From assembly GCA_000092065.1 (NCBI GenBank), contig CP000588.1: a stretch of 64,000 bases of DNA. One strand, given 5' to 3'. The stretch is from Ostreococcus lucimarinus. Lineage: Eukaryota. Position 1 is the stretch's first letter. Each line of letters begins with the position of its first letter. This document shows, piece after piece, positions 3,874 to 63,501 of the stretch. A program made the translations under genes and the position numbers. A model generated the notes under the pieces. That model was given only the letters and a program-made list of their open reading frames with translations, made no database searches and had not been told where the DNA came from.

Positions 3874-6800
3874 TCATCGCGGCGGCGGCTGGACGTACGC
3901 CGGGCCGAGCGCGGCCAACACGACGGGCAACACGACGACGGCGTGGATGAAGCTCGCGGTGAGCGTGACGACGATGAAGGTTGCGAACTTTGTGAAGAAG
4001 ACGATGGTACATCCGAGCAAGCATGCCGCGGCGGCGATGGATGAGAACCAGCCGGCGGTGATGGCGCCTCCGACGATGCGGAGCGCCGAGAGTGAACGCT
4101 CGTCCTTTGTCATGGGTTGGTTATGCGTTGATACGTACGCGACAGCGATGTGGCTGATATAATCGATGCTGAGACCGACAATAATCTGCACGCACACGGA
4201 TTCGATGATGCCCAGACGCCATCCGCGAAGCGCCATGAAGGCGACAAAGTATACTACGACGGAGGCGATGCAAAACGTCGCTGCGGCGGCGATTTTGACG
4301 CTCAAGGTGCAAAGAAATAGAACCATAAACGCCAAAACTAACGAATATACGACGGTCAACGAAGCGGCTGATTTAAGTTCGTCAACCGTATCTGCGAGAA
4401 CCCACGTATCGCTTGATTGAAACGCGCCGCGCGTCTCCGGAGGCCCAGTCGAGATCTTTGCCGCAAACCACGTTTCCCAGAAATCGTGCGCTTTTCTGAT
4501 TTCATCAGCCGTAGACACCCTGCGCGCCGACGTCGGTACCGTGATTGCTGAGTATGCGACACAGAGATCATCGCCCAGGCGATATTTGTCGCAGTCGTCT
4601 CTATTTCGTATGAAGCGCAGTAAGCCGTACGTATTCACGTGATTGGCGAACGTTCGAACGGCGTAACGAAAGTCTTGTCGAGCGATGGGTAAACCGTCGA
4701 TGTGTGCACCGAGTAATCCTCCGTCTTTGAGCCATACATCAAGATCATATATCCAACAATTGACCGTCGTTGGAGACACGATGCGATCGCGCATCGATCT
4801 AAGCTCGGCACAGAATTCTAGCAACCATATCTGAGAGTCTTCGTCGGAAAAATCATACGACGCATTCGGCTCAACGAGCCACACTGGAACGCCAGAGTAC
4901 GACAGAGACTTATCAGATATAGCGGACACGCTCGAGCGCGCGGCATCGAGGCCGAATGTGAACTGGACGAGGACGCTTTCTTCGTAGCGAGACGAGTTAA
5001 AACTCTGCGCGGCGAGCGTGTAATCGTGGATAACGTGGCCTTTTGGCCACAGAGACAGTGACTCGTCGCCGGTTTGCTTCACGATGTTGAGCCCAAGAAG
5101 CACGGCGCCGACAATCATGGCAACAAATACCACATTAAGCGTCCACTTCCAATACACGAGGCGAGTAAACGTCGCAGCAAGTAAATCCCGGCGACGACGC
5201 GACGTCCTCCGAGGTGAGAGCGCTGGAGACGTCGATGCGGACGATGCTTCATCTATCAAAGGGCGTCCTTCGACGGCAAATGATGGACGTAGTGTTAACG
5301 CAACCGGATCTAATGGTGCGGATGCCATGCGCCTATGGATGACACGACTGAGAGTTTCAGGAAAGTCACCAAAATCGATTGTCGCTCTCCGTTGCGCAGA
5401 TCCACGACGAGCCACCACAGTCGGATTTACGTCGACTACTTCCTCTTGAGAAGGCATCACGCGGTTTCTCGAGACCGCGATGCGCTTCCACTTTTCATTC
5501 AAAATCAACACCGAAGATGTCACGACGATACTGACGAGTAGGAGAAAAATAATCTGCGTCGCCATAAATGTGCCAAATAGCCGAACGGGAGGAATGGAGC
5601 TCGGAATGCTGCTTGCAAAAGCCGCCGCCGTAGTGAAAGATGTGATACTTATACTAAATGCCGAGTGACGTAGGGTCCATTGCATGCGTTCTTCTAAAGT
5701 TGCGTCCAGGCTCTCTTTTTCCTCGACGTTGTTCGCGCTCGCCTGCCAATGATCGTAAATCACGAAGACGTCGTCGGCGCCGATGCCGATAGATAGGAAA
5801 ATTCCCGCAATATGAATTATGCCGAACCATTCTCGTCTGTACACTTCATAGTAAGTCGCATGCGTGAGAAGAGTCGCACCGATTATACTAATCATGCTGC
5901 AAATGGCGAGTGAGAGCGAGCGGGTGTGCAAAGCGATGAACGCCACCGTCACACACAGCGAGCCCACGGCGAATACGCAATCCTTCGCGAGACGATCATC
6001 CAGCATCGAGTTGTACGCATTAATGTGCCGCCAGGAAGCGAAGGTTCCCGTGGAAACAGATGAGACGTCAGAGTTGAAATGTTCGATGACGTGCCGAGCC
6101 ACATTCTTAACCCAAATCGTCGACTGATCACTGTATGAAAGCCGAAACACGATGGCCATCCTGCGCGGCTCGCCTCGCTCTTGCGCCATGTTTGGCAAGA
6201 AAGCATCGTTTAATAATATTCCGAACGGTGCCCCGAAAGCCTCGATTGCGTCCCACGAGCTGGACCAGCGTAAAATCACTTCTATCCCGAGCATTGTATC
6301 CCACACAGCAACCGCATCGATTTCACGGCACGCCACCGCGTCGAGGTTTTTATTCATCTTCGCGACGGCGATTATCTCCCCGACCGTAGGATCCACGTGC
6401 TCTATAAAATCGCAAATACCAATCTTAAACTCTCCGATCATGCATCGCGCGCTACTCGTGACGTCGCAAGGATATTCGTGACACGCGGCGACGGCGTCGC
6501 ACATCGATCGATGCGCCGCCTCGACGATCTCGCGCGTAAACATTCGATATCCGCATTGATCGCGAATAAAATCCAAGCGCGCCGATACTTCTGCAAACGT
6601 CCCTTGCCCAAGCTTCTGTGCGCCTTCGAAGACGTCCCATAAACCCACCAATCGATACATATTCTCGATGTCAAAAATACTAAACGCCGCCGCGCATCCG
6701 TCCCCGTATCGATCCTCCTCGCACGTGTCCTCGTAGCCCCACGCGTGCTCGATGTTATGCTTTAAAACGCACACTTGGCGAAGTGCGTTCGCGATATCAC

Positions 6801-17588: not shown

Positions 17589-20500
17589 CTAACCTCGCGA
17601 CGGCGCGGCCGCTGGGAATACGCGCGTCAGGCGGTAGACTTTCATCGAGACCTCGTTGATCTCGTGCGAACTAGCGCTCCATTTAAATGGGTTCATCATC
17701 TCAGTCGAAACGCGCACGATGCCGCACACGACAAACGTGAGCAAGCCCACGGGCACCGCCACCGCCACGCCGTACGAATGAATAAACGCGAGCGGCGACG
17801 TGAGCACAAAGACATAACAGAGCAAGTACACGGAGTACATGTAGAAGGGCGGGATCGGAGTGCTGACGATCGTTTCGCAGTTTGTCCACGCATCGAGGAT
17901 GCAGTCGATATCGTGGTAGATGCGGTAAAGTCTCTGTTCGTTGTTGACTTGACTCTTTGGGAGCGAACGCATCGCGCGCTTCAATTCGCCGCTGCACTTA
18001 CTGACACGAAACGCAGGCGCGATACCAGCGTAGGCGTTTCGCTGCTCTGCATTCATAAGATCTTTTGTCGATGGAGCGCCAAAGAAATCGTCATCGAGTA
18101 CGGTGTTGGGTGTCAACTCTTCCTTTGGTCGGAAAGTCGAGGGATATCCTACTCGAGACTCTCGAATCGATTGACGAGCGAAAGCCATGAGCGAGTTTAA
18201 CATGCTCAGCATCTTCGCGTGTGCCGCGCAATCTTCGTCAGTTTCAGACGATTGAAATGCAGTGTTCAGTTCAATGACCAAGTCTCTCCCGTAATCGATC
18301 AAGTTGTCCAAATATTCACGAGCGGTGTAGTAGCGCGTGTACGTCAAATTCAGCAAATGGGCGATGCAAAAGCCCAACACTGGGACGGCGATAGTATGAC
18401 CTTCGGGCGTGATCAATGTCTTGCATTGTCCGGTGGTGTAAAGCTCATCTTTGTCACAGACGGCTTCGGATAGGAAGTACAAGCCCATGGCGGCGGCGCA
18501 AGCGGCAAATATGAAAGGAAGCGTCGGCAAGATGAGCGTCCCACGTAGAGACACGAACTCGGTGAAAATACCAAATTTGCCACTCCTGAAGCTTCGTTGC
18601 TTCGGGAACGTCCACCCGGCCGGCATTTCGCGATCATAAGTCCAAGCAGGAGCGACCGCAGTCTGATCGACTTTTTGTCTCACTTCTTCGTAGCACTCCT
18701 TCCCAACGTCTAGGCGTTTTTCCTCGACTCGCTTCACCAAGAGAGAGATTTCCGCTTTGAGCTCATCGCTTTCTGCCAAGCTTTCGTGCGTGTGCGCACA
18801 AGATTTCCACAGAGATTGGCCCATTACGATTAAATCGTTTGAGCACATGACATCGCGCGTGAAAGGCTCTTCAAGGAGACCGGCTATGTCGATCATTCCA
18901 TACAGTGTCAAGGCAAGAATGCCGAGCGGTAGCCACGTCATGTACGTGAAGGCCACGACGATGACGCTTGCGGTCGCAAACATCCACAAAAAGAGTACAA
19001 TGTTGATCAAATGTTTCAACGAGTATGGTGCTCTCGTGTTCCTTGCGCGGGTACAACGAGAAAACGCGTGCAGAGCGGTTTGCATGCTATTCGCCATCAT
19101 CGCTGCCCCACGATTAGTTATGCATCCAGAGCTTCGGGCGGTCTCTACTTCCGCAAGAAGACGAGCGGCGATCGTAGCGACGCGTTCTTCTGAAGACGCG
19201 TCGAACAGTTTGAGGAAACTATTTTTGCCTTCTTCATCGAGAAGCGCACCCAGTAGTGATTCAGCGTCTTCATCGTAAAAGAGAGTGTGGGCGTCGCTCA
19301 GTTTCGTTTTCGTCTCGCCGTGGGCGAGATCCTTATTCAAGCTCTGACGCATGCTTGCAAAAAGTGCACAGCTCAAACGAAGAACTGCATATCGAGCTTT
19401 GCGAACAGCTTTAGCGGAGTTATCTTTGATTGGCTTCCCCGCCCTAGAAAGCTCGCGCAAGTGCGCGCAGGCTTGGATGTTGAGCGTGTACAACGAGTAC
19501 AGGAGATCGTAAATCCCCGTCTTTGCCTCGTAAAATACTCGAAACGCAAAGAAGAATCGATAGACAACCGCAAACATTGTCATACGTCCAATTATAGAAA
19601 CAGCTGCGGGCGCAAACACGACGTCGCACATCCTGTGGTCCGTAACGTCGTCGCCACAAAACTCAAGTTTGTAAAACTGCGCGCCAACGCCTATGAACAT
19701 CATGACGAACATCATCGGCCAAATATGTGGGAATACGGTGTTTCTCAATCGAAACAAGTACGAAAAGTACGACGAAGTCGAATCCACGCCACGTTGACGT
19801 CGTACTGCCTCCCAAACTGTGAGATCTCTCAGGGCTTTGGGGGCGGCCGCGCCGCTCAGAACGAGAGCATCCACGCCCGAGTGTGTTGTTTCTTCAGCAT
19901 CGCCGACGGCGCGCGCACATTTTTCATGAATGGCGATAGTCTCAGTGTACAGTGCCCAGCCAACTTTCGTTAAGTCGTGTTTAGGATCTTCCCAGCCGAA
20001 AGGATCAGCCAACAAACTCCCCAGCTCTGCGATTCCAAATAGCGATAGAGTCACCAACATTGACGGCACGACGGCGAGCCATTTGTACGAGGTGATGAAC
20101 ACAAACGGAGAAGAAAGTGCGAAGAAGAAGACGACAAAGTTCATCAAATGGATGAAAGCAAAAGGCATCGAGCTTGAGACGATTCGTTCAATATCAGCGA
20201 CCGCATTCACGCACGCCTCTATTCGACCGAGCATCTCGAATGCGCTGCGTTCGGAGATGTGTCCGAGGCGACGGCGTTCGTCAATGATGGCGATCATCTT
20301 CGACGCGCAGCACCCAACTCGCGCTCTATAATCACATTTTAAATAGCGAGCTTTTTCAGCATCTGTGAGCATAACCGATAGTGACGGCCAGCCTCGAGGA
20401 TCATCAATCATCTCTTCATCGGTAGGCGACAACTTCTTCAACGTGAAAGGCTCGACGCCGTGGCGACGCTCACGAACGGCTTGCCGCATGAACGCCATAA

Positions 20501-23444
20501 GCACGCATGATAACCGACGAATCTCCGTGACATCATCGTTAATTTCTTGCTCCAGCTCAGGAGATGATCTCCGATTCAGAGATCGCATCATCGTGCACGC
20601 ACCAAGGTTGAGACAACGCAAGCTGTTCACCATCACGCCAACCAAGCCTTTGCCGTCGTAATATCGCGAGTAAGAGAACATAAGCCTGAAAACGAGGGTG
20701 AAGCCGATTATAGAACCGCTCATAACGTGTGCTTTGTCATCAAACGTGAAACTGCATTGCGTCACATTCGAAACCGAACTCCCACACCAATGAATTTTCA
20801 AGAAGTTTGCGAGTACGGATACTGCGCCAGTCAATGCAATTTGAAGCGCAATCTGCGGCACGACTGTGTTTCGCACGTGAAACACGCATGAGACGAAAGA
20901 CCAACCCGTGCGTAGCGCCTGCATGTTCTTTATGGCACCTGTTTTAAATTCTTTCTCGTAGTTTGAGATATTCTTGACGCGGATGGAAGGTGCCGCCAGG
21001 AGTGACTTTTTACTCCGGTTTGCGCCGAGGCTCTCCCTGTAGAGGCCGCCAGCTGTGCTCAAATGATCGCCCAGAATCTTGGCTTCATCCATGAGTTTCA
21101 CCCATGTATCGTCACTGCCTCGCATCTTCATCGCGAACGCACCAAGTCGTTCATGACGAGTAAACATGCGCGAACCCATTCCGCTCAGATCGTGGCGCGG
21201 ACCGGTCCAACTGAACGGCTCCATCATACTTGTGGAAGTCTCGGCGATACCATAAAACGCGAGTGCGACGAGTATCACTGGCACGCTCGTGATCCACTGG
21301 TAGCTCACACTCAAAACAAACGGCATAGTGAAGACATAGAAGAATAGTAAAACTTGCAGCAAGTGTCGAAAACGGTTCGGCACCGGCGTCGACACGACTC
21401 GCATCAAGCCTTGCATCGCCTGCAGCGAGTTGCATACTTTTCGGTAGGCCTCAGCGCTAAAGCGCTCAGTCATAGCGCCTGATCGACCGTATTCTTCAAA
21501 AATTGCGTTTAGTCTCATCCCTACCCACGTCGGGAACGCATGCACGGGTAGAGATTTCAATTCAGGGTGCTCCGATTCTCGAACCAAATCGCAGAGTTTA
21601 CACGCGCCGCCAAACTTGTCCATCGTTAAAATATCATCGAGCTTGACTGTATTTCCCGATGGATCACGACTTATAAGCTCTCGCACGGCGATTCTCGCGA
21701 AGCCATACATGACGTTCGACAAACGCTGCACTTCTCTTGCGTCCGCTTCGACCGCACTCAGGTCGTCATTTTTTGCCGTCGTGAAAATCGCCGAGCACGC
21801 CGTCAACGAACGCAGACTGTTCTGCATACTGACAACCAACTTTTTGGAAGAAATGAAACGCTCGTACCCCCAATCAGTGTTAATGACGAGTAAGAGCGAA
21901 ATAGGCATCGCCAGTATACGATGGGCAGAGAGATCAAACGTCACAAGGCACTGCGACGAGTCAGTGACGTTCCAACCGCACACGAGTATCTTCAGCAACT
22001 GCGCGCCGATACCGACGACGGCCGCGAGGCCAATTTGACGGCCGATGTGAGGAAGCGTAGTCTTTTCCCAAGCAAAGCAATCGATCACGAACCAAAACGG
22101 ATTGCGCCATCTCCGGTAATTCATTGAATCTACCGATAGCGGTTCGTCGTCCACGTCGATGCCGACTACGTCTTTGCTCATCTTGAACGCATCCATCTCC
22201 CGTTCGATTCTTCGAGCTATGACATTCAGGGGGTGAGCCGGAAGCACCCATTTGAATGGATCTTCCAGTGTGCTCGCAATCTCATTGACGCCGTAAAATA
22301 ACCACGCAAGTGTCGCGCTCACGAGCGGCGTTCGCCAATCCATGAGCGAACTGAGCGCAAACGGCGCGGAGAAGATGAACGCGAATAGCAACACCGTCAC
22401 GGTATGAGAGTACTGTTTCGGTGTCGGTGTTTCGATTATCAGCATAGCCTGTCGATAAGCGTCGAGCGCGCGTTGAGACTCGCGAAATGCCTCCATCGCG
22501 GCGCGTTCGCTCAAAACGCCCGCGCGGTGCATGGTTTCGATGCGAGTCAGCGCGTCAATCATAACCGCATCCGGACGATTCTCGACCGCCAACTTCGCGT
22601 ACTCTGTACGTTCGTCACGTTTAGTGAGATTGGAAACGTTCGGAGTGCCGTCGTCATCGCGGTGGAGCAAAGACTCGGTCGAAACGTCGCGCTTGCCGCC
22701 GCGAACGCCGGCGTCGACGACGCCGAATCGCGATTCGCGCAAAGCTTGTCGCATGAACGCGAACGTCAAGTTGCACAATCGACGAATTTCACTCTGAAGC
22801 TCTTCTATCGTCGTCGGCGTATGGTGATCTTTGCTCGAAAACATGGACGCGATCGACCCCGACGCCGGTTCCCGCGCCTCGACGTCCGTCACCGAGGCGA
22901 GATTTCGCAGCGCGTCCTTCACGTCAATCATCGCGAATTTCCCATCCTCGAACCGCCTAAACGCCTGCACCGCGCGAAACACCAGCAAGAACGACAGCAC
23001 CGCCGACACCGCGTAGTGCGCTTCGATCGTAAAAGCGTACCGACACGTCGTCGAGTACCGCTGCGTCTCGTCGCACGCCGACAGTTTCAACCACTGCGCG
23101 CCCGCGCCGACCACTCCCGCCAGCGCGATCTGCGGCGTCACCCTCGACACGCACGCCATCCAGAGCGACACCAAAAACCCGAGCCTCCGCTCGAGATCTC
23201 GCGCGTCGCGCGCGCGTCGCGTCGCCGTCGCGCCCTTCCCGCGTTCGCCCCCTTCCTCGCGCGTCTCGCCGCGTCCAATCCATCGCGTCGTCGCCTCCCC
23301 GTCCCGCGTCGTCGTCGTCGCCGGCGCCGCGTCCCGCACCGCGTCGCGCGCCTCGCCCTCGCGTCCCGTCACCATCGCGATTCGCGTCGTCTCGACGCCG
23401 CGCGTCGTCGCGCGACGTCGACGTTCGTTACCGCGAACGAACAA
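17589..23444 (-). CDS. Giant membrane protein made of five tandem bestrophin-like (UPF0187/VCCN1-type anion channel) domains
   Basis: It is a 1951-aa uninterrupted ORF with five modules of about 330 aa spaced about 390 aa apart, at roughly residues 85-415, 445-765, 845-1175, 1222-1550 and 1615-1945. Each opens with an (R)NTVxPxI TM1 segment: VTPQIALAGVVGAGAQW, LPHIGRQIGLAAVVGIG, RNTVVPQIALQIALTG, RNTVFPHIWPMMFVMM, RGTLILPTLPFIF. Each carries a conserved FA(F/S)MRQ(A/S)(L/V)RE loop helix and closes with the bestrophin-type xxPF(K/G/S)W...(H/N)DL motif: LEDPFKW, MEPFSW...HDL, ADPFGWEDPKHDL, EEPFTRDVMCSNDL, NPFKW. Confidence 0.65.
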   Translation of the reverse strand: MFVRGNERRRRATTRGVETTRIAMVTGREGEARDAVRDAAPATTTTRDGEATTRWIGRGETREEGGERGKGATATRRARDARDLERRLGFLVSLWMACVSRVTPQIALAGVVGAGAQWLKLSACDETQRYSTTCRYAFTIEAHYAVSAVLSFLLVFRAVQAFRRFEDGKFAMIDVKDALRNLASVTDVEAREPASGSIASMFSSKDHHTPTTIEELQSEIRRLCNLTFAFMRQALRESRFGVVDAGVRGGKRDVSTESLLHRDDDGTPNVSNLTKRDERTEYAKLAVENRPDAVMIDALTRIETMHRAGVLSERAAMEAFRESQRALDAYRQAMLIIETPTPKQYSHTVTVLLFAFIFSAPFALSSLMDWRTPLVSATLAWLFYGVNEIASTLEDPFKWVLPAHPLNVIARRIEREMDAFKMSKDVVGIDVDDEPLSVDSMNYRRWRNPFWFVIDCFAWEKTTLPHIGRQIGLAAVVGIGAQLLKILVCGWNVTDSSQCLVTFDLSAHRILAMPISLLLVINTDWGYERFISSKKLVVSMQNSLRSLTACSAIFTTAKNDDLSAVEADAREVQRLSNVMYGFARIAVRELISRDPSGNTVKLDDILTMDKFGGACKLCDLVRESEHPELKSLPVHAFPTWVGMRLNAIFEEYGRSGAMTERFSAEAYRKVCNSLQAMQGLMRVVSTPVPNRFRHLLQVLLFFYVFTMPFVLSVSYQWITSVPVILVALAFYGIAETSTSMMEPFSWTGPRHDLSGMGSRMFTRHERLGAFAMKMRGSDDTWVKLMDEAKILGDHLSTAGGLYRESLGANRSKKSLLAAPSIRVKNISNYEKEFKTGAIKNMQALRTGWSFVSCVFHVRNTVVPQIALQIALTGAVSVLANFLKIHWCGSSVSNVTQCSFTFDDKAHVMSGSIIGFTLVFRLMFSYSRYYDGKGLVGVMVNSLRCLNLGACTMMRSLNRRSSPELEQEINDDVTEIRRLSCVLMAFMRQAVRERRHGVEPFTLKKLSPTDEEMIDDPRGWPSLSVMLTDAEKARYLKCDYRARVGCCASKMIAIIDERRRLGHISERSAFEMLGRIEACVNAVADIERIVSSSMPFAFIHLMNFVVFFFALSSPFVFITSYKWLAVVPSMLVTLSLFGIAELGSLLADPFGWEDPKHDLTKVGWALYTETIAIHEKCARAVGDAEETTHSGVDALVLSGAAAPKALRDLTVWEAVRRQRGVDSTSSYFSYLFRLRNTVFPHIWPMMFVMMFIGVGAQFYKLEFCGDDVTDHRMCDVVFAPAAVSIIGRMTMFAVVYRFFFAFRVFYEAKTGIYDLLYSLYTLNIQACAHLRELSRAGKPIKDNSAKAVRKARYAVLRLSCALFASMRQSLNKDLAHGETKTKLSDAHTLFYDEDAESLLGALLDEEGKNSFLKLFDASSEERVATIAARLLAEVETARSSGCITNRGAAMMANSMQTALHAFSRCTRARNTRAPYSLKHLINIVLFLWMFATASVIVVAFTYMTWLPLGILALTLYGMIDIAGLLEEPFTRDVMCSNDLIVMGQSLWKSCAHTHESLAESDELKAEISLLVKRVEEKRLDVGKECYEEVRQKVDQTAVAPAWTYDREMPAGWTFPKQRSFRSGKFGIFTEFVSLRGTLILPTLPFIFAACAAAMGLYFLSEAVCDKDELYTTGQCKTLITPEGHTIAVPVLGFCIAHLLNLTYTRYYTAREYLDNLIDYGRDLVIELNTAFQSSETDEDCAAHAKMLSMLNSLMAFARQSIRESRVGYPSTFRPKEELTPNTVLDDDFFGAPSTKDLMNAEQRNAYAGIAPAFRVSKCSGELKRAMRSLPKSQVNNEQRLYRIYHDIDCILDAWTNCETIVSTPIPPFYMYSVYLLCYVFVLTSPLAFIHSYGVAVAVPVGLLTFVVCGIVRVSTEMMNPFKWSASSHEINEVSMKVYRLTRVFPAAAPSRG

Positions 23445-53921: not shown

Positions 53922-54006
53922 TTAGCGCGAGGAGAATCCGATTGATTAGCTTGGCCTAGCGCGCGTGGTAATTTACACATTCTTCTACAGCGACTCGAAT
54001 CGCTTC

Positions 54007-55071
54007 TCAGCGCCGACCCATCAGATGGCCCATGAGTTTGTTCGTGACGGCAGCCTTCTTTTGCGCTTGCGTCTTTTCGGGCTCGGCGTCATCCAACGCG
54101 AGATTCGATCCATTTTCTACGACCCGCACGGTTGGTTTCGCGGGTTCCGCCGCGAGCGCTATCAAGTCGGCGCGCAACAGCGCCTCGGCGTCTCGCGCCG
54201 ACGCGAAGGACGTCGCGCCCTTCGCTCCCACGCGCACGCGCGCCGCGGGCGCCATCCCCGCGCTCAGCAGCGTCGCATCGTCGTTTCGAGAGAAAACGCG
54301 CTTTGGTGGCGTCACGAACAATTCCACGCTCTCGGCCACCGCTCGATCGCGCGCGCATCGCGCGACGAACTCGTACAAGTCTCGCACGCGCTCGCTCGCC
54401 GCGAACGACGCCTCGACGACCAAATCGCTCGGCGGTGGCAGCGTGAACCGAATCGCCGCGCGCGTCGGTTTCGGCTTCCCCATCGCCGCCGCTTCTCGCA
54501 TCTTCTTCGTCATCAACACCGGCTCTTCCCTCGACCTTTTCATCAGCGCCGCCGCGTCCGTCGTCGTGAGCTCGTAAAACGCCTCGGGCAGGTCCTCCCC
54601 CGCGTCGTTCGGCCCCTCCTCGATCTCCACCTCCCGACGTATCACCCTGAACGCCCGTCCCAGCGCGTCCAGCGCGCGCGCATCGCCCGTCCCATCGCCC
54701 GTCGCCTCGACCGCCTTCTCCGTCGTCGTCGTCGTCGTCGTCGTCGTCGCGCGTCTCGCCGTCGTCGCGCGTCTCGCCGTCGTCCGCGCGCCCTCCTCTC
54801 GCCGCCGCGCCTCCACGCGCGCGCCTCGCGGGTGATTGAGGTACCGAATCGCCGTTCGCAGGTCGTCGCTCGACGCGCGTGCGCCGTCGACGGTGACCTC
54901 GTGCGTCGGCGCCGCGCCGTCGTCGGTCGTCTCGATCGTCATCGTCGTCGTCGCGCCGCGCGTCGCGCGCAGCTTCGCCGCGCACGCCGCGACCGCGTCG
55001 CCGAGCGTCATCATCGGCGTCGCGTCGACGACGACGCGCGCGCCGTCGACGCGCGCCTCGAACGGCGGCAT
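54007..55071 (-). CDS. ASPSCR1/TUG/Ubx4-like protein (N-terminal TUG-UBL1 domain plus C-terminal UBX domain)
   Basis: The N-terminal MPPFEARVDGARVVVDATPMMTLGDAVAACAAKL has the TUG-UBL1 pattern. The UBX-like domain is AAIRFTLPPPSDLVVEASFAASERVRDLYEFV. There is a poly-Thr tract. The ATG is at 55071. Confidence 0.6.
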   Translation of the reverse strand: MPPFEARVDGARVVVDATPMMTLGDAVAACAAKLRATRGATTTMTIETTDDGAAPTHEVTVDGARASSDDLRTAIRYLNHPRGARVEARRREEGARTTARRATTARRATTTTTTTTTEKAVEATGDGTGDARALDALGRAFRVIRREVEIEEGPNDAGEDLPEAFYELTTTDAAALMKRSREEPVLMTKKMREAAAMGKPKPTRAAIRFTLPPPSDLVVEASFAASERVRDLYEFVARCARDRAVAESVELFVTPPKRVFSRNDDATLLSAGMAPAARVRVGAKGATSFASARDAEALLRADLIALAAEPAKPTVRVVENGSNLALDDAEPEKTQAQKKAAVTNKLMGHLMGRR

Positions 55072-55199
55072 CGCGTCGCGGCGTGCGTCGTCGAGTGCGG
55101 ATTCGGATTCGGCGACGCGCCGCAGATTCCGACGCCGCGCGCGACGGCCCGCGACGACGCGCGCCGCGACGCGCACCGCGACGCGCCGCGCCGCGCGCG

Positions 55200-55341
55200 A
55201 TGGCCAAGCTCGGGAAGCGCGCGAAGAAGTTTCAGCGGAAACACCTCGACGCCGAGCTCCGCCGCCGGAAGACAAGGAAGATTAAAAAACAGCGCGATGG
55301 CGCGCGCGCGCGACGCGCGGAGGCGCGAAAGAGCGATGAAG
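55200..55341 (+). CDS. NOC2: Nucleolar complex protein 2 (NOC2), exon 1
   Basis: MAKLGKRAKKFQRKHLDAELRRRKTRKIKKQR matches yeast Noc2 [32 protein letters not shown]. It ends at a G|GTGCGT donor, phase 1. Confidence 0.8.
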
Positions 55342-55456
55342 GTGCGTCGGCGCGATGCGGCGAACGAATCGCGGGCGCGGACGGGGACCGGACGCGGGGG
55401 GGGCGAGGGATGGGTGACTGACGCGAGGGACCGGGTTCGGGGCGACGCGCGAACAG

Positions 55457-57807
55457 AGAGCGACGACGACGAGGAGAGCGAGGAGAGCGACGCGAGCGAG
55501 GGCGAGGCGCCGGGGGGGGGTGGGAAGAAGAGGGTTGAGGATATGTCGATCGATGAGTTTTTGAATCAGAGCGATTTCGAGGACGAGGACGAGGAGGAGG
55601 AGGAGGAGGAGGACGACGAGGCGGCGGCTGAGAGCGAGAGCGAGAGCGAGAGCGAGGACGCCGGGACGGATGAGGACGAGGAGGAATCTTCGGATGAGGA
55701 CGAGGAGGACGATGATTTGAAAGGGGTGACGCGTGAGAACGGTAAGATGCGGGAGGACGTGAAGTCGCACAAAAAATCGTTGGAGAAGCTCAAGGAGACG
55801 GATCCCGAATTTTATGAGTTTTTGCAAGAGGAGGATCAGGACCTGCTCGAATTTGACGAAGACGAAGACGAGGACGATGAGGACGATGAGGACGAAGACG
55901 AAGATTCTGGTGATGAACGTGCAGAGCGAAAGAAGAAAAAGTTGCGAACGCTCACGACGGAAATCGTCAAGAAGTTGTGCGCCAACGCCGAAGGAGGGAA
56001 ATCTCTGGGCGGCGCGAAAGCTTTATTCCAGGCGTATAGAGCGGCGTGTCACTTTGGCGACGATGAAAACGATGGTGATGAGTCGAGCGTGCGTTTGGCA
56101 TCTTCGAGCGCGTTTCATGAACTCGTTCAATTCACTCTGATGAATGGCGACGGCATCCTCAGAGCATTGCTCGGGGTACAGGACGACGAAATCGACGACG
56201 GAAACCGGTCTTTCAAACCTCACACCAACGCCAGATGGAAGAAAGTTCAACCGTTAGCGAAATCGTTCGTTGGAAATACTTTGCACTTGCTCGGCAACCT
56301 CACCGATGCCGAAATGACGGGCATGGTGCTCCGACAACTGAAAGCTTCAACTCCATTCATGGCGACGTTTGAGCGTTTAATCAAACGAGTCACGCGTACT
56401 GCGTTACACTGCTTCGGTAGTGGTGAACCTTCCGTGCGAGTTCAAGCTATTTTACTCCTTCGAGCACTAGCGGTTGGCTTGCCACCGCCGGCTCTGGAGC
56501 GAGTCGCCAAGGGTGTTTACAGAACGTTTGCATCAAACGCCAAGTTTGTCAACGCCGAGTCTGTGGAGCATATCGCGTTCATGTCGACGTGCGTGGTCGA
56601 AATCTTTGGTCTCGATCAGCAACAATCCTATCCGTTAGCGTTCACGTACATAAGACAGCTCGCTTCTCTTCTTCGCGGTGCGCTGACTGCGAAGAGTAAG
56701 GAAGCTTTCCGAAACGTGTACTGCTGGCAATACGTGAACTGCCTGGAGTGTTGGGAACGCGTGTTAAGCGCACACGCGCGAAGCGAGGATGCCCCGTTGA
56801 GACCTTTAGTGTATCCTTTGGCTCAAGTCGCCCTCGGTGCCGCGCGTTTGTTGCCTTCGGCTCGTTATGCTCCGCTTCGGTTGCGACTCGTGGCTTTGCT
56901 CAACCGTTTGGCGGCGAGCACCGGGCGTTTCATCCCGATTGCGCCTTTGCTCATGGAACTTCTTACTTTTAGCGAGCTCACAAAGCCGCCGGTGTCATCC
57001 AAAGCGCACCCTCCGGATTTCACGATAGTGCTTCGCCTAGCGAAGCAAGATTTGCGTCTACCAGGAGTCCAGGACATCATCGTTGAGTCGTCCATGGAGG
57101 CGCTCGCTGAGCACTTACACCAAAACGCCTACTCTCCAGCGTTTCCTGAGCTTGCGCACATCCCGACGCGAGAGCTTAAGAAGTTTTGCAAATCTGTCAC
57201 GGTCACTCGGTTCAAAAAGTCTGCTCGAGCGGTTATCGATGCAGCTGAGCGGACGAGTGACTGGGTCATTCGCAAGCGCGACAACGTCGACTTTGCGCCG
57301 AAAGATTTAGCAAAGGTGCAAAACTTTTTGAGCGCTGAGAAAGCCGAAGGCAAAGCGCCAGTGTCTCGTCTGGCTAAGACGCTTCATGAGAAGGCTGCAC
57401 AACGCATTGCTGCGCAGCAAGCGACGGAAGTGAAGCTCACGCGCGGTCAGAAAGCATCCACTGGCGCATCCGATAGCGATGAAGACAACCAAGACGAAGA
57501 CGAGCCGGCGGACGAACCGATGGACGGTAACGACGACGAAGAAGACGGAAGCGAGGAGTTTGGCGGCAGTGATAGCGATTCCGACGATGTCATGATCGAC
57601 GGTGACGAGGCGTACGCGGAATTCAAGAAGCGCAAATCCAAGACAAGCGACCACGACGACCTCCAAGGCGACGAGGACAAAGTCGAGGACCTGCAGCTTT
57701 CGTCGGACGACGACGAAGATGACGACGACGCGCCGCCGCGTAAGTCCTCGAAGTCGGCTTCGAAGTCGGCTTCGAAGAAGTCGGCTTCGAAGAAGCGGCG
57801 ATATTGA
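55457..57807 (+). CDS. NOC2: Nucleolar complex protein 2 (NOC2), exon 2
   Basis: After an ACAG acceptor the frame reads ESDDDEESEE...VEDMSIDEFL...HKKSLEKLKETDPEFYEFLQEEDQDLLEF...QLASLLRGALTAKSKEAFRNVYCWQYVNCLECWERVL...LRPLVYPLAQVALGAARLLPSARYAPLRLRLV...FIPIAPLLMELL, which aligns with NOC2L throughout. The 5' part of the 1280-aa track ORF (53965..55199) is antisense to the UBX gene and is rejected. Confidence 0.8.
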
Positions 57808-57948: not shown

Positions 57949-59331
57949 ATGCATCTACGTAGACGCGCGCGCAGCGCGATCGTCCTCATCGTCGCGCTCG
58001 CGCACGTCGCGCGCGCGACGGCATACCAATCGCCGTTTCGACGCCACCTCCTCGAGGAGCGCACGTGGCTAATGAACAAGTTCGGCGTGCCGCCCGGCGA
58101 AGAAACGTCGTGCGTGGAAAAGCCTTATAGGTCCACGTGCACTTTGGGCATTAATTGGGACGTAATGTGCGCGCACAGAGTGGATGTCGGCTCGTCGACC
58201 GATCCCACGGAGTGCATCTGCACGCACTGCCCGACCACGTGCGCAGACGTGAACGGGGTGACGGACAGTGCTGATTCGCTGACGGGCACAGTCGACACGT
58301 GCACTGAGATCTATAACTGTACGGAGTTTCTGATGGGTATGAATTGGCATCTCATCGGAAATCCGGACAGTTACCCGTGGAATGAAACTGATTCGTACGG
58401 TTGCGGATGCGGCGTGAGCGTTTGTCCAAGCCCGCCGCCGAGTCCGCCGCCGAGCCCACCGCCGAGTCCGCCGCCGAGTCCGCCGCCGAGTCCGCCGCCG
58501 AGCCCACCGCCGAGCCCACCGCCGAGCCCACCGCCGAGCCCACCGCCGAGCCCACCGCCGAGCCCACCGCCGAGCCCACCGCCGAACCCACCGCCGAGCC
58601 CACCGCCGAGCCCACCACCGAGCCCACCGCCGAGCCCACCACCAAGCCCACCACCGAGCCCGCCAGTGCCAATCGACCGCATTGTTAACGCGACATCCAC
58701 GCTCGTGGGCTATTCATCAAGCGATTTTGACGCGAGTCGGCGCGCGTTCTTTCGCGTGGGTATTGCTAGCGCTCTGTCCGCAATCGACTCGGATGATGTT
58801 GGAATCACGAGCATTACGGATGTCATCGCTAAACGCAGAAGGCGCCTACTCCAATCCATGGCTGTGGATATAGATTACTACGTCTTTGTCGATTCCTTGA
58901 CCAATACGACACTCGTAGAAGTCTCGTCGACGCTAAACACGGCACCACTGCTCACATCTTTACAATCTAGCGGATTGGTTGCCGTGACGGCGGTATCGAC
59001 CGCGGTGCGTGCGCTTCCTTCACCGCCGCCATCACCGCCTCCGGCGCCATCAATCTCTGGTTCCGCCTCGCAAAACATTTCTGCGAACGCTACTTTGACG
59101 GTTGCTGAACAAGATCCTGACTTTTCCGGAGCGCGTGTGGCCGGACTATTTGCCGGTGCGGCCGCAATGTTGTTCACATCCGTCGCGTACCAGTACAGAC
59201 AAAGCATGTTCAACTTATTTCAAACGCGTGCGTCCAAACCAACCAACACCGCCGGCGGTTCGAGAAAGTCCGCATTCGACGATAAGTCATCCAACGCCGC
59301 CGAAGACTTCATCACAAAGGCCTGCGAGTGA
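57949..59331 (+). CDS. Secreted/membrane-anchored hydroxyproline-rich glycoprotein (extensin/pherophorin-like) with (SPPP)n repeat and C-terminal TM anchor
   Basis: It has a signal-peptide-like N-terminus SAIVLIVALAHVARATA, a Cys-rich N domain, about 22 SPPP repeats, a globular C-domain, and the TM helix GLFAGAAAMLFTSVAYQY. Confidence 0.6.
   Translation: MHLRRRARSAIVLIVALAHVARATAYQSPFRRHLLEERTWLMNKFGVPPGEETSCVEKPYRSTCTLGINWDVMCAHRVDVGSSTDPTECICTHCPTTCADVNGVTDSADSLTGTVDTCTEIYNCTEFLMGMNWHLIGNPDSYPWNETDSYGCGCGVSVCPSPPPSPPPSPPPSPPPSPPPSPPPSPPPSPPPSPPPSPPPSPPPSPPPSPPPNPPPSPPPSPPPSPPPSPPPSPPPSPPVPIDRIVNATSTLVGYSSSDFDASRRAFFRVGIASALSAIDSDDVGITSITDVIAKRRRRLLQSMAVDIDYYVFVDSLTNTTLVEVSSTLNTAPLLTSLQSSGLVAVTAVSTAVRALPSPPPSPPPAPSISGSASQNISANATLTVAEQDPDFSGARVAGLFAGAAAMLFTSVAYQYRQSMFNLFQTRASKPTNTAGGSRKSAFDDKSSNAAEDFITKACE
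58434..58670. repeat. 12-bp coding minisatellite (agcccaccgccg / agtccgccgccg)n encoding (SPPP)n
   Basis: Direct reading of the sequence. Confidence 0.9.
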
Positions 59332-59523: not shown

Positions 59524-62190
59524 TTAGTTCGGTGGTTCGGAAGATCCACCACCCAAGGTGTCCAATGCCTTCATGAACGCCTCGTGGGCCTGAGGCGTTC
59601 CCGGTCCACGTGACGGGGCGCCGCTCGGCTGAACGCTAGAACCAAAACGATTCATCATCGATAGCCAAGCTGGGTTCATGGGCTGATTCATCATCGGGTG
59701 GGCACCAAACATGTTCATAGCCATTCGCGGTGCTGCCATGGATGGTGTAAAAGCACTTGTCAAGGCGGGTTGAAATCCAGACGCGGATGATACTGGAGTC
59801 ACGCGCGAGGTTTGCCCTTGCGTCCAAGGCATGGCGGATGCGTTGCTTGCTCCAGAACCTTGAGGCTGCGGTTGCGAGCCGCTCGCCGACGGTCTTTGCA
59901 CGGTCACTGCGCCCACTCTCGCACTCGCAGCTTGACGGGCGTTCCCATCATCTACGTATTGCAAGTCATTCAGCCAACGTTGCGTCACCTGCGTCTGCAG
60001 TGCCTGAACGCTCGCAACAGTAGCTGGTTCAGCCTTGACTCCGGTCAAGGTGGAATTGGACTTCGCACTCGTCGCGCTCTTTCCACCATTTTCACCCGTT
60101 CCGCCAGAGCCTCCAGAGTCAGAGTCGTTCGTCGGCGATTTCCTCGAAAGTTCCATAGTTTTCACCTGTTCGGAAACCTCGCGAACAAGCGCGTTGGCCA
60201 AAAATGGCAACTGCGTGGAAATCAAAGACGCAATCTCGGCCTGATTCAAGCCTTGACTTACTGCAGCGGTGGCGACAGCTGAAACGGATATTCCGATGCG
60301 CCATCCCGTGGTTTTGGCTAATGTCACAGCGATTTCTATCGCTTCTGAGCTATGACCAAGATTTTGGAGCACGATTTGCGCGACTTCTTCTCCAGCGCGC
60401 GACGCTACCATCCCGGCGTTATTCGCCGCATGGTCCACATCGAAGCCGACAACTTGAGTCATGAGTACCAATATCGCGCGTTGCATCTCGTTTTGTGCGT
60501 TGGCACCGTGCGCGATAGCAGCGGCGGTACTCAAAGCGTTTTTCTTCGCGGCATCTTTCACGGGAGCGGTGAGCGCTGCCGCACCGTCGGGTCGTTCTAC
60601 CCTTCTGCGACCACTTCCCTTTGGTAAATTGCGCTGCGTTCCGCCCTCGGTCCAGTACCTTTGGCACGATCGACAGTAATGTCGAGGTTGTGTCGGTAAC
60701 CCATTGTTGTAGTAACAAAATCGTGTCTTTTCCGAACCGCATCTTGCACACGGGCGATGCGAACTTTCCACCGGCTTGGAACCCGCGTCGACGGCGTTGA
60801 CGCCAGTCGTCGTTCGATCCTGCGTCGTAGTCGTTTTCCCCATCGCTTCCGCAGCAACTGCTGTGTCGGTTTTTGTTGACTCGTGCGCTTTCGTCCCCGT
60901 CTGCGTGCCTCGCGCCGGTGATAGCTGTTTTGTCGTGTTCCTGTCCGCCGGAGCCGCCTTATCCACTGTGCTCTTTTCTTCTGCGTCGTCGGCGACACCT
61001 TGTCTCGAGGCGTCGCTCGAGCCGTTGTTGCTGTTACCACCACTACCATTGTCACTCGTACCGGTCTTTTTCGGTGCGACCGCTGTCGCACCAGACGCGG
61101 TAGCGCCCGGTCGCTTCGAACTATTGCAAGGCCCGTCGGCGCGCTGCGAGACGTATCGTTGTTCGTTACCCGAATCCCCGCTCGATCGCGCGTCTGGATC
61201 TGCGTCGCTATTCGATCCCTTGCGACCGTTTTGGTCGCTTGACCCATCGTTAGAGCCGCCGTGTTTGCCATCGTCCGAAGTCGTGTCGCTGCTCGACACC
61301 GGCAGGTGCGAACGCTTCGTCCCGTGAGGATCCAGCTTTGCGGCGTTCGCCGCGCCGATGGCTTGCAACTCGGCGGCACTCAAGCTCGGCGCCATGCGCA
61401 TGGATTCAAAAATCGTGGCCAGCTTGGACATTGAAGTCGGTTTATCGACGTGACAGTCAAATGCCACAGAACTGGCGTGTTCTTTGAGCTCTTGGTCCGT
61501 GAGCGACGTCACGGCGATGATGGGCATACGCCTGAGCGCCTGCTTCTCCTCCATCGCTCGAATCCCCGTCGCGATTTCGTATCCATCCATCGTGGGCATC
61601 ATCAAATCCATCAAAATCCCTTGAATCTCCGCGTGATTTTCTCCGTACAATCGCAACGCCTCCGCGCCCTCGCCCGCCTCTATGCTTTGATAACCCATCT
61701 TTCCGATTTGCCCCGCCTGAAACTTTCGCACCGACGCCACGTCGTCCACGATCAACACCGACTTCCGATCATCCGTAGTCGTCGTCGCCGTCGCCGTCGC
61801 GCGCGTCGCACGTCTCCCCGTCGAAACCACGGGCGTCGTCATCGCCACCTCTCCCGTCCCTTTCCCTCCTTCCTCCTCGCGCGTCGGCAATCGCCCCTCG
61901 TCCCTGAGCGCCGCGAGCGCGTCTCGCAGCCGCCCGAGCGCGAAGCTCCCTCGCCCCTCGGGATCGACAATCTTTTCGCACCGTCGCAGCATATCGTCTT
62001 CGTGCGCCCCCACGTGCGCCCCGAGCGCTCTGACGAGCGCTCCCACGCGCGACGTCGGAATCTCCCCTCGCCGCGCGCGCGCGCCTCCGCGCGCCCCCGC
62101 GCTCGACCCCAACAGCGTCGCCGCCGCGCCGTACGCCCCCGCGATCTCGCGTTCGCTCGGCGCCTCTCCGACATCGCTCGCGCGCGCCAT
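59524..62190 (-). CDS. Response-regulator receiver (REC) domain fused to a Dof-type C2C2 zinc-finger DNA-binding domain; C-terminal Q/M/P-rich tail
   Basis: The REC domain (aa ~143-255, nt ~61428-61764) is [12 protein letters not shown]...[23 protein letters not shown]...IIAVTS...DCHVDKP, with the DD, phospho-acceptor D, T and K residues in place. The Dof domain (aa 479-530, nt ~60603-60756) is [46 protein letters not shown]. The C-terminal [21 protein letters not shown] looks like an activation region. The ATG is at 62190. Confidence 0.75.
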
Positions 62191-62632
62191 GACGCCGCGA
62201 AATCATTTCTCCCTGTCTCCACCGATCGCGCGTCGCCCTCACCCCGTCGCGCGTCGCGCGCCGCCGTCGAATCGAATCGAATCCCCGACGCTTTTCGCCC
62301 GTCGCGCGGGTGCCGCGGACGAATGAATGCGCGCGCCTTCCCGCGCGCGACCGCCGTCGCGCCCGCGCCGATCCCTGAATCCGACGCGTGAATCTTTTCT
62401 CCGCGCACCGTCGCGTCGTCGCGTCGTCGTCGCGCGTCGCGCGTCGCGCGTCGTCGTGTGCGCGGTGACGCGCGCGAAAAAGCGCGCGCCGCGCGCGCGC
62501 GACCACGAAAAAGCGCGCGCGATCGCGCGCGCGCGAGATTGTCGTCGACGGCGTTCGCGCGTGTCTTTATACGAGTCTTTATCCGCGCCGAGCCATCCGA
62601 GCCCGTGCGATCTCATCCGATCGCGGCCGCGT

Positions 62633-62708
62633 CGAGACCCACGCGTGGCGACGCGCGGAGACCCACGCGTGGCGACGCGCGTCGAGACCCACGCGTGGCG
62701 ACGCGCGT
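62633..62708. promoter_or_regulatory. Three tandem ~25-bp repeats, each carrying the 10-bp palindrome CCACGCGTGG (ACGCGT core), in the divergent promoter between the REC-Dof and ArgRS genes
   Basis: The sequence is gagacccacgcgtggcgacgcgcg x3. Two GCGCGAAAAAGCGCGC (E2F-like TTTCGCGC) copies lie at about 62470-62520. A regulatory role is inference. Confidence 0.3.
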
Positions 62709-62775
62709 CGATCGACGCGCGGCGGCGCGCGCGAGACGGCGACGCGCGACGCGCGACGCGCGCGAGACGGCGACG

Positions 62776-63501
62776 ATGACGGCGCGCGCGGACGATGCGA
62801 TCGAAACGCTGGACCTCGCGGACGGCGCCGACCCGCTGCGCGCGGTGCTCGACGCGTGCGATCGCGAACTGCGCGCGTTCCTGACGCGAAAGTACGCGAG
62901 CGAAGCGCTCGACGCGTTTCCGAGATGCGCGCGGACGAAGAGCGCGGACGCGTGCGTGCAGTGGGCGCAGTTCGCGTCGAAGCGGAAGATGAATCCGAAG
63001 GAGGTGGCGGAGGAGGTGGCGAGGGAGTTCGGGGAGGAGGTGGCGAAGCGGCCGCGGCGAGGCGCGATCGTCGGGTGCGAGGCGGCGGGGGTGTACGTGA
63101 ACTTGAAAATGAATCGACCGATGGTGTTCGAGGCGACGATGAAGGCGGTGGCGAGACGGGGAGGAAAGTTTGGGCACACCGATGCGGCGAAGGGGAAGCG
63201 GGTGATCATCGAACACACGAGCTCGAACCCGAACGCGCCGCTGCACATCGGCAACCTGAGAAACGTCATGATCGGCGCGCACTTGTCGAGGATGATGAAG
63301 GCGTGCGGACACGACGTGAAGGAGGCGTTTTACGTCAATGATTTGGGCGCGCAAATCGGGTTGACGGCGTTGGCGTATTCGAGGATTTATGACAAGATGA
63401 CGCCATTCATGAAGATTGACCACTGGATCGGGGCGATGTACGCGGTGATGAACACGTGTCAAGAGTTGCAACAAGTGGGCGTGAAACCGGGCGAGCTCGA
63501 G
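62776..63501 (+). CDS. RARS: Arginyl-tRNA synthetase, exon 1 (N-terminal domain plus start of catalytic core)
   Basis: IIEHTSSNPNAPLHIGNLRNVMIGAHLSRMMKACGHDVKEAFYVNDLGAQIGL matches ArgRS [24 protein letters not shown]...YVNDWGTQFG, with HIGN in place of HVGH. It ends at a GAG|GTGCGT donor, phase 0. The first ATG is at 62776. Confidence 0.75.

Follow-up and report, generated by a model that had tools for sequence, protein, structure and literature searches.

Domain anatomy and coding unity of REC-DOF, a response regulator with a Dof zinc-finger output, in Ostreococcus lucimarinus

The REC-DOF locus

We analysed a 64,000-nucleotide stretch of the Ostreococcus lucimarinus genome (GenBank assembly GCA_000092065.1, contig CP000588.1), hereafter the window, to whose numbering all positions refer. 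On its minus strand, the listing of open reading frames (ORFs) gives an 888-codon ATG-to-stop ORF that occupies exactly 59524..62190 and encodes a receiver (REC) domain followed by a Dof zinc finger. We are confident that this is Ol08g01600, the O. lucimarinus orthologue of the REC-DOF protein of Bathycoccaceae, and that the protein is a nuclear transcription factor with the layout of an orthodox response regulator and a Dof output, for which a phosphorelay fed by light-sensing kinases is proposed. The gene and its parts are the following.

59524..62190, minus strand: complete REC-DOF coding sequence, 888 codons plus stop, one exon (ORF listing, match to Ol08g01600)
61891..62157, minus strand: N-terminal domain, aa ~12-100, weakly EF-hand-like (conservation, weak PDB profile matches)
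61411..61758, minus strand: REC domain, aa 145-260, with D149/D150, D195, T228 and K250 (PF00072, CheY alignment)
60760..61395, minus strand: Ser/Asp/Gly-rich linker, aa 266-477, predicted disordered, with acidic and Ser-rich conserved motifs (alignment, substitution rates)
60595..60759, minus strand: Dof C2C2 zinc finger, aa 478-532, then a basic RRR stretch (PF02701, CDF1 match)
60136..60498, minus strand: conserved C-terminal domain, aa ~565-685, a predicted family-specific bundle of long helices (codon comparison, structure prediction)
59527..60135, minus strand: low-complexity Ser/Ala/Gly/Pro/Gln/Met-rich tail, aa 686-888 (composition, alignment)

The original prediction, made from the letters of the window, had read this ORF as a single protein joining a receiver to a Dof finger and ending in a Q/M/P-rich tail. 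This is borne out by the ORF itself, by the orthologues and by Pfam, where both domains score above the curated cut-offs. The peptides that it quoted are all present, namely LIVDD (D149, D150), ILMDLMMP (D195), AVTS (T228), VDKP (K250) and the Dof cysteines C481, C484, C506 and C509. Its layout was nonetheless incomplete, as the conserved N-terminal domain and the helical C-terminal domain had been overlooked. The novelty that it implied for the REC-Dof fusion does not hold either. Indeed, the fusion was published for Ostreococcus tauri in 2017 (PMC5508029) and for Ol08g01600 itself in 2025 (PMC12704426); since these two papers describe both the architecture and the phosphorelay hypothesis, the architecture is no discovery. 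What we add is a cleaner anatomy, with two extra conserved domains, an intron loss and a narrow phyletic range, where the published accounts mention REC and DOF only, together with quantitative evidence for a single coding unit.

The identity of the gene was established against the 2025 study (PMC12704426, ISME J), in which it is named and drawn as REC-DOF. Over the initial part of Ol08g01600 printed in the supplement, the window ORF is equal at 399/399 nucleotides and 399/399 amino acids, a comparison that covers the first 399 of the 888 residues. The total coding length of 2667 nt and the single exon also equal those of the published gene, which the printed table places on O. lucimarinus chromosome 8 at 286,190->283,524 (PMC12704426). 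From these coordinates we infer that the window corresponds to roughly 224,001-288,000 of chromosome 8. The exact REC-DOF protein was also recovered on a Logan contig, with neighbouring genes alike.

The same study lists orthologues in O. tauri (ostta08g01730), RCC809 (Od08g01660), O. mediterraneus (Ostme16g00320) and Bathycoccus prasinos (Bathy08g01970) besides O. lucimarinus (PMC12704426). In 2017, De los Reyes et al. had presented the O. tauri orthologue under the name OtDOF2 and assigned it a receiver domain with a 'DDK' motif (PMC5508029); its protein, XP_003080741.1, appears in a multi-omics study (bioRxiv 10.1101/293704). The identifier of the receiver-containing OtDOF2 differs between the two main papers, being ostta04g02850 in 2017 (PMC5508029) and ostta08g01730 in 2025 (PMC12704426). 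The chromosome-8 identifiers of the O. tauri, RCC809 and O. lucimarinus orthologues, together with the printed sequence, support ostta08g01730.

A canonical receiver domain

Pfam places Response_reg PF00072 at aa 145-260 with E=2.2e-15 and 57.2 bits against a cut-off of 30.2, covering positions 1-109 of the 111 in the profile. The receiver is matched at E<=0.01 by 131 receiver chains of the PDB, among them the RcsC receiver, RR468, CheY, CKI1 and AHK4. In a BLASTP alignment, D149, D150, D195, T228 and K250 pair with D12, D13, D57, T87 and K109 of Escherichia coli CheY, so that the acidic pocket, the phospho-acceptor Asp, the Thr and the Lys claimed for this domain are canonical residue by residue. 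This quintet is invariant across the 18 orthologues aligned, D195 included, and it is legible in the B. prasinos sequence as far as it is printed in the supplement, as VVDD, LLDIMMP, AVTA and IEKP. At the codon level, the ratio of nonsynonymous to synonymous substitution rates (dN/dS) of the receiver is 0.12-0.22. No CCT domain, the output of plant pseudo-response regulators (PRRs) of the clock, was detected in the ORF protein by Pfam at E<=1. Judged by its sequence, the receiver thus has every residue needed for Asp phosphorylation and is not a pseudo-receiver of the PRR type, and a (beta/alpha)5 receiver fold is implied by homology.

It could still be argued that the canonical residues are kept while the domain is not phosphorylated in vivo and serves as a constitutive interaction or dimerisation module, as in plant PRRs, the Dof output being set by transcription and turnover. 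The literature that we searched holds no phosphotransfer data for this protein, and the strong mRNA rhythm of the O. tauri orthologue could suffice for regulation (PMC5508029). Moreover, REC-DOF is among five receiver proteins (PMC12704426). The histidine kinases of O. tauri number just two, LOV-HK (blue light) and Rhod-HK (green light), and there is one histidine-phosphotransfer protein, HPT (PMC4343026); with five receivers on one HPT, not all need be genuine targets. Against this stands the invariance of the quintet in 18 orthologues, whose deeper comparisons are saturated at synonymous sites, and its presence in the printed B. prasinos sequence, while the plant PRRs on which such a reading is modelled have lost the acceptor Asp (PMC3041508). 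As the whole quintet is retained, it is hard to explain without catalysis, and we regard a non-phosphorylated receiver as unlikely, although it is the alternative that survives best.

A canonical Dof finger

Zn_ribbon_Dof PF02701 matches aa 478-532 with E=7.2e-23 and 80.9 bits against a cut-off of 26.6, over profile positions 3-57 of 59. The zinc ligands C481-X2-C484-X21-C506-X2-C509 keep the CX2CX21CX2C spacing intact, and the best match of this part among solved structures is Arabidopsis CDF1 (8xuf_C, E=3.6e-19), whose alignment shows the FCYYNN, QPR, RYWT.GG and basic tail motifs all present. These results agree with the canonical Dof C2C2 finger of the original prediction. Like the acceptor Asp, C481 and C484 are invariant in the 18 orthologues, and C506 and C509 are at least 90% conserved, the sole exception being an incomplete gene model (P0020). 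Compared with the closest relative, contig L002, which is 91% identical, the finger has dN=0, and it is still 84% identical in Bathycoccus-like contigs (tblastn).

Plant Dof domains are reported to mediate protein interactions besides DNA binding. The finger could thus be mainly a protein-protein module, or the protein could act outside transcription, and the O. tauri orthologue is indeed annotated only as a 'putative zinc finger'. This reading is very improbable. The finger and the basic region that follows it are 60-65% identical to land-plant DNA-binding Dofs, the CDF1 segment included, and no amino-acid replacement separates the finger from that of the closest relative; furthermore, Dof-type motifs are enriched in the promoters of rhythmic gene clusters of O. 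tauri (PMC12216367).

One gene under purifying selection

The receiver and the finger share one reading frame in 18/18 orthologues from metagenome and assembly collections, and the frame stays open from REC to Dof even in the deepest of them, which are only about 50% identical. Between the two domains, the linker is retained as protein. Indeed, the 18-orthologue alignment keeps the motifs GSN.GS (also written GSN[DE]GS), RSSG.SGN, N..KRP, SDASRQG and EEKST, with invariant columns at G312, S313, N314, G316, S317, R335, S336, S337, G338, S340, G341, N342, R360 and P361. In codon comparisons its dN/dS amounts to 0.41 with L002 and 0.38 with L004. At the DNA level, the window departs from L002 by indels of 12, 3, 9 and 18 nt only, all of them multiples of three. 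By a rough estimate, the chance of a 212-codon stop-free linker at this base composition is ~5e-4. The linker has no secondary structure in a model by AlphaFold2 (AF2), which is itself of low confidence.

Because the linker is conserved as protein, with dN/dS of ~0.4 and indels in frame only, we consider REC-DOF a single selected coding unit and a two-gene artefact excluded for practical purposes. The original prediction had itself named separate REC and Dof parts as what would undo it; instead, the ORF is continuous in all orthologues. The other refutation that it had named, a missing phospho-acceptor Asp, fails too, as D195 is present throughout. That an adjacent stand-alone receiver and stand-alone Dof were read as one ORF because stops are rare in G+C-rich DNA is the least credible of the alternatives: long spurious ORFs are common in the window, such as the antisense ORFs of 313 and 411 aa beside the gene, and the linker is of low complexity and predicted disordered, but beyond the evidence above it has no internal Met-initiated conserved start ahead of the Dof finger, and the manually checked gene models, in the printed part of the supplement, give one REC-DOF coding sequence in each of five species (PMC12704426). 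Such antisense or overlapping ORFs (61450..62391 on the plus strand and 62239..63474 on the minus strand, for instance), with their Arg/Ala-rich, low-complexity translations, are a usual by-product of ~60% G+C.

The REC-Dof-C-terminal domain order is retained in the Bathycoccus-like contigs. By codon substitution, purifying selection on REC and on Dof is strong in every Ostreococcus clade, and these modules are found in the Bathycoccus lineage as well.

An N-terminal domain and a lost intron

Upstream of the receiver, a conserved domain is present not only in O. lucimarinus but also in O. tauri, RCC809, O. mediterraneus and contigs L003 and L004; across these 6 sequences, 22 positions are invariant. 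Its seven best PDB profile matches are all troponin C or calmodulin, but weak (E=0.027-0.19), and Pfam gives no match, EF-hand included. In the putative loop, D1, G6 and the hydrophobic residue at position 8 are invariant, while position 12 is Lys or Arg in 5/6 sequences instead of the canonical Glu. These features are suggestive of a degenerate EF-hand pair without establishing it. If the domain is a relative of EF-hands, it probably does not bind calcium, since position 12 of the loop is basic in five of the six sequences.

This domain forms a separate first exon in O. tauri, RCC809, O. mediterraneus, L003 (~4400-5000) and L004 (~4600-5000). The intron lies directly before '...LRDEGRL', so that prokaryote-style gene callers start most metagenomic orthologues at MLRDEGRL, and in L003 and L004 the N-terminal domain sits upstream of the called starts. 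In O. lucimarinus and L002 the intron has been lost and the domain is fused in frame. The B. prasinos model, as printed in the supplement, begins at the REC domain, without the N-terminal domain (PMC12704426).

A family-specific C-terminal domain

Downstream of the finger, the C-terminal domain (CTD) has dN=0 at dS=0.23 against L002 and dN/dS=0.036 against L004; by this measure it is as constrained as the Dof finger. It is still 40% identical in the Bathycoccus-like contig L005 (tblastn, E=3e-20). A domain-only AF2 model gives the core a predicted local distance difference test score (pLDDT) of 82-90 and places long helices at aa 585-611, 615-645 and 650-677, with a less confident helix before them. 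The CTD has no Pfam match, and a fold search gave generic helical bundles but no specific fold. A resemblance to AhpD and carboxymuconolactone decarboxylase (CMD) was considered and rejected, since neither sequence nor fold showed a significant likeness to the helical CMD/AhpD fold. In a homology search with the Dof finger and the CTD together, the only matches to the CTD were fragments belonging to this family, and the next matches, land-plant Dofs, cover just the finger; thus, there is no evidence for a Dof-CTD ancestor devoid of REC.

In the low-complexity tail, an SGGSGGT motif is conserved, as is a short W-L...RFG element at the C-terminus; the dN/dS of the tail is 0.23 against L002.

REC-DOF might then be a four-module integrator, in which the degenerate EF-hand-like N-terminal domain and the three-helix C-terminal domain, both lineage-specific, each have specific functions; we put this forward tentatively, as a possibility that is less probable than not. 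Were it true, the CTD could be a phosphorylation-dependent oligomerisation surface or a dock for TOC1 or for CONSTANS-like proteins, and REC-DOF would be the molecule that directly connects the two light-sensing histidine kinases with photoperiodic output in these smallest of free-living eukaryotes.

A family probably confined to Bathycoccaceae

A HMMER search of 1.84 billion proteins (representatives of 50%-identity clusters) returned six full-length representatives and a few fragments, and scores drop from >900 bits to ~210 bits below the REC-DOF family. The nine lower-scoring candidates that we examined are multi-receiver proteins, mostly hybrid histidine kinases, and one four-Dof plant protein. 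The published survey found none in two Micromonas species (PMC12704426). Together, the HMMER result and the absence from Micromonas suggest that the family is confined to Bathycoccaceae (Ostreococcus and Bathycoccus), with the provision that the full-length profile search is saturated by multi-receiver bacterial hybrid kinases, so that a very divergent REC-Dof under ~124 bits could be hidden. Even the Bathycoccus orthologue was missing from the best 150 HMMER matches.

Of the lineages in which the original prediction had suggested looking for orthologues, Ostreococcus and Bathycoccus do have them, as seen in the 18-sequence alignment, in Bathy08g01970 and in the Bathycoccus-like contigs L005 and L006. 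The Micromonas orthologue is not found in the two species surveyed, and Chlamydomonas has a stand-alone Dof only (PMC5508029). As L005 and L006 are frameshifted long-read assemblies, only their Dof and CTD tblastn segments were used; tblastn at E<=1e-3 did not bring up their REC part, and the receiver residues of Bathycoccus come from the printed B. prasinos sequence.

Some database labels in this family deserve mention. MDA9766712.1 (P0135, in the cluster of P0002), a 749-aa member, is filed in NCBI nr as 'response regulator [bacterium]', and several other members are named 'CheY-like chemotaxis protein' by JGI. These look like eukaryotic contigs that were mis-binned or mis-annotated in metagenome data. 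Outside the window and the family, P0186 (609 aa), with four tandem Dof fingers and DUF724, an unusual architecture, is the only Dof-driven match among the best 150, and is presumably a plant protein.

A proposed light-fed phosphorelay

With the receiver read as a genuine phospho-acceptor and the finger as DNA-binding, the mechanism proposed for REC-DOF would run as follows. The two light-sensing histidine kinases would pass phosphate via the single HPT to D195. Phosphorylation of D195 would alter how active the factor is; dimerisation, or the lifting of an inhibition within the molecule, would be the most plausible route, by the example of other response regulators. This light-dependent switch, the most likely mechanism, is modelled on the type-B Arabidopsis response regulators (ARRs). 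The helical CTD would be a candidate surface for oligomerisation or partner binding. The Dof finger would bind promoter sites with an AAAG core and place diel or photoperiodic expression under light-quality control, with CONSTANS-like genes as proposed targets. In support of this context, REC-DOF is one of the five receiver proteins to which the kinases could pass phosphate (PMC12704426), OtDOF2 is diel-rhythmic, with a peak at about zeitgeber time 21 (PMC5508029), and REC-DOF is co-expressed with COL/CMF genes in metatranscriptomes (PMC12704426).

Several points weigh against this model. An intact quintet, read from sequence, does not prove phosphorylation. Our literature search found no published phosphotransfer to REC-DOF, no DNA binding by its Dof domain and no mutant phenotype, and the phosphorelay pathway is a hypothesis in the source papers too. 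The full-length AF2 model, based on the 18-sequence alignment, has a mean pLDDT of 36.5, too poor to judge the (beta/alpha)5 fold of the receiver; it was discarded, and we drew no inter-domain conclusion from it. The role given to the CTD is pure inference, because the fold search returned only generic helical bundles. Finally, the link to CONSTANS is weak, because the co-expression partners of REC-DOF differ between genera (PMC12704426).

In the green lineage, the fusion of a receiver to a Dof is unusual. In plants and Chlamydomonas, the Dof domain, a plant-specific DNA-binding domain, is tied to the photoperiodic control of CONSTANS; here it would come under a His-Asp phosphorelay whose only sensors in these algae respond to blue and green light. 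This makes REC-DOF an appealing and workable system in which to study how a minimal eukaryote couples light quality to transcription, a point already in print (2017, 2025).

Comparison with known regulators

REC-DOF/OtDOF2 of O. tauri and the other orthologues have the same module order as the window gene (N-terminal domain, REC with DD-D-T-K, acidic linker, Dof, helical CTD) and the same conserved synteny with the arginyl-tRNA synthetase (ArgRS) gene. They differ in that O. lucimarinus REC-DOF has no intron while four other species have two exons.

Type-B ARRs, in which REC is joined to GARP/Myb, and the REC-GARP proteins of Mamiellales likewise combine an N-terminal phospho-accepting receiver, presumably HPt-fed, with a plant-type DNA-binding domain. 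In type-B ARRs the receiver locks the DNA-binding domain until it is phosphorylated (PMC10801921), and by analogy they are the best model for how REC-DOF could work. Unlike them, REC-DOF has a C2C2 Dof finger and not a GARP helix-turn-helix as its output, a disordered linker of ~210 residues, and inputs that are likely light-sensing histidine kinases and not cytokinin receptors.

Ostreococcus TOC1 (REC and CCT) and plant PRRs also join a receiver to an output of the clock or photoperiod type. O. tauri TOC1 keeps the acceptor Asp and was proposed to act downstream of LOV-HK, Rhod-HK and HPT (PMC4343026). In contrast to these proteins, REC-DOF has a Dof and not a CCT output, and it has the full quintet, whereas land-plant PRRs are without the acceptor Asp.

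Stand-alone Dofs (Arabidopsis CDF1-5, Chlamydomonas CrDOF, Ostreococcus OtDOF1) have the same finger and are tied to the diel and photoperiodic regulation of CONSTANS-like genes (PMC5508029). They are devoid of a receiver and, unlike REC-DOF, are controlled via transcription, degradation or partner contacts; nor was the CTD found in them by the Dof-CTD homology search.

Finally, bacterial OmpR/NarL regulators also carry a receiver and a DNA-binding output in one polypeptide, and the closest PDB receiver sequences to REC-DOF are bacterial (RcsC receiver, Thermotoga maritima RR468, CheY). REC-DOF differs from them by its eukaryote-specific zinc finger, its long disordered regions and its presumed HPt intermediate.

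Neighbourhood and promoter

The gene order ubiquitin-L40, ArgRS, REC-DOF is conserved in four lineages (L001-L004), and in the Bathycoccus-like contigs L005 and L006 REC-DOF is grouped with ArgRS and Noc2; in the window, Noc2 is at 53965..57807. REC-DOF and ArgRS are divergent and share the following region.

62191..62775, strand not assigned: divergent intergenic and promoter region between REC-DOF and ArgRS (sequence, Tandem Repeats Finder)

From the ORF translation, the start of ArgRS would lie near 62776. Tandem Repeats Finder detects, at 62628..62737, a repeat with a period of 24-25 bp and ~4.4 copies, each with an ACGCGT palindrome that resembles the core of an MluI box. Exact copies of the repeat occur in the conspecific contig L001 and none in the 91%-identical L002. 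The Evening Element (AAATATCT) is absent from the REC-DOF promoter; its only two matches within the window are at 16092 and 48594.

The ArgRS neighbour (PF00750 and PF05746; 62458..63528, plus strand, and beyond) is split into two consecutive ORFs in each of L001-L004, which suggests a conserved intron or frame break. On the other side, REC-DOF is separated from Noc2 by a 460-aa ORF (57949..59331, plus strand), whereas in the Bathycoccus-like contigs it adjoins Noc2. This ORF has a long perfect (SPPP)n run, a hydrophobic N-terminus, a transmembrane-like C-terminus and no Pfam match, resembling a surface protein of the extensin or hydroxyproline-rich glycoprotein kind. Further away, in a low-GC part (0.51) of the window, a 1951-aa ORF (17589..23444, minus strand) contains five Bestrophin_2 stretches (PF25539, E=4e-117), suggesting several bestrophin channel domains fused in tandem.

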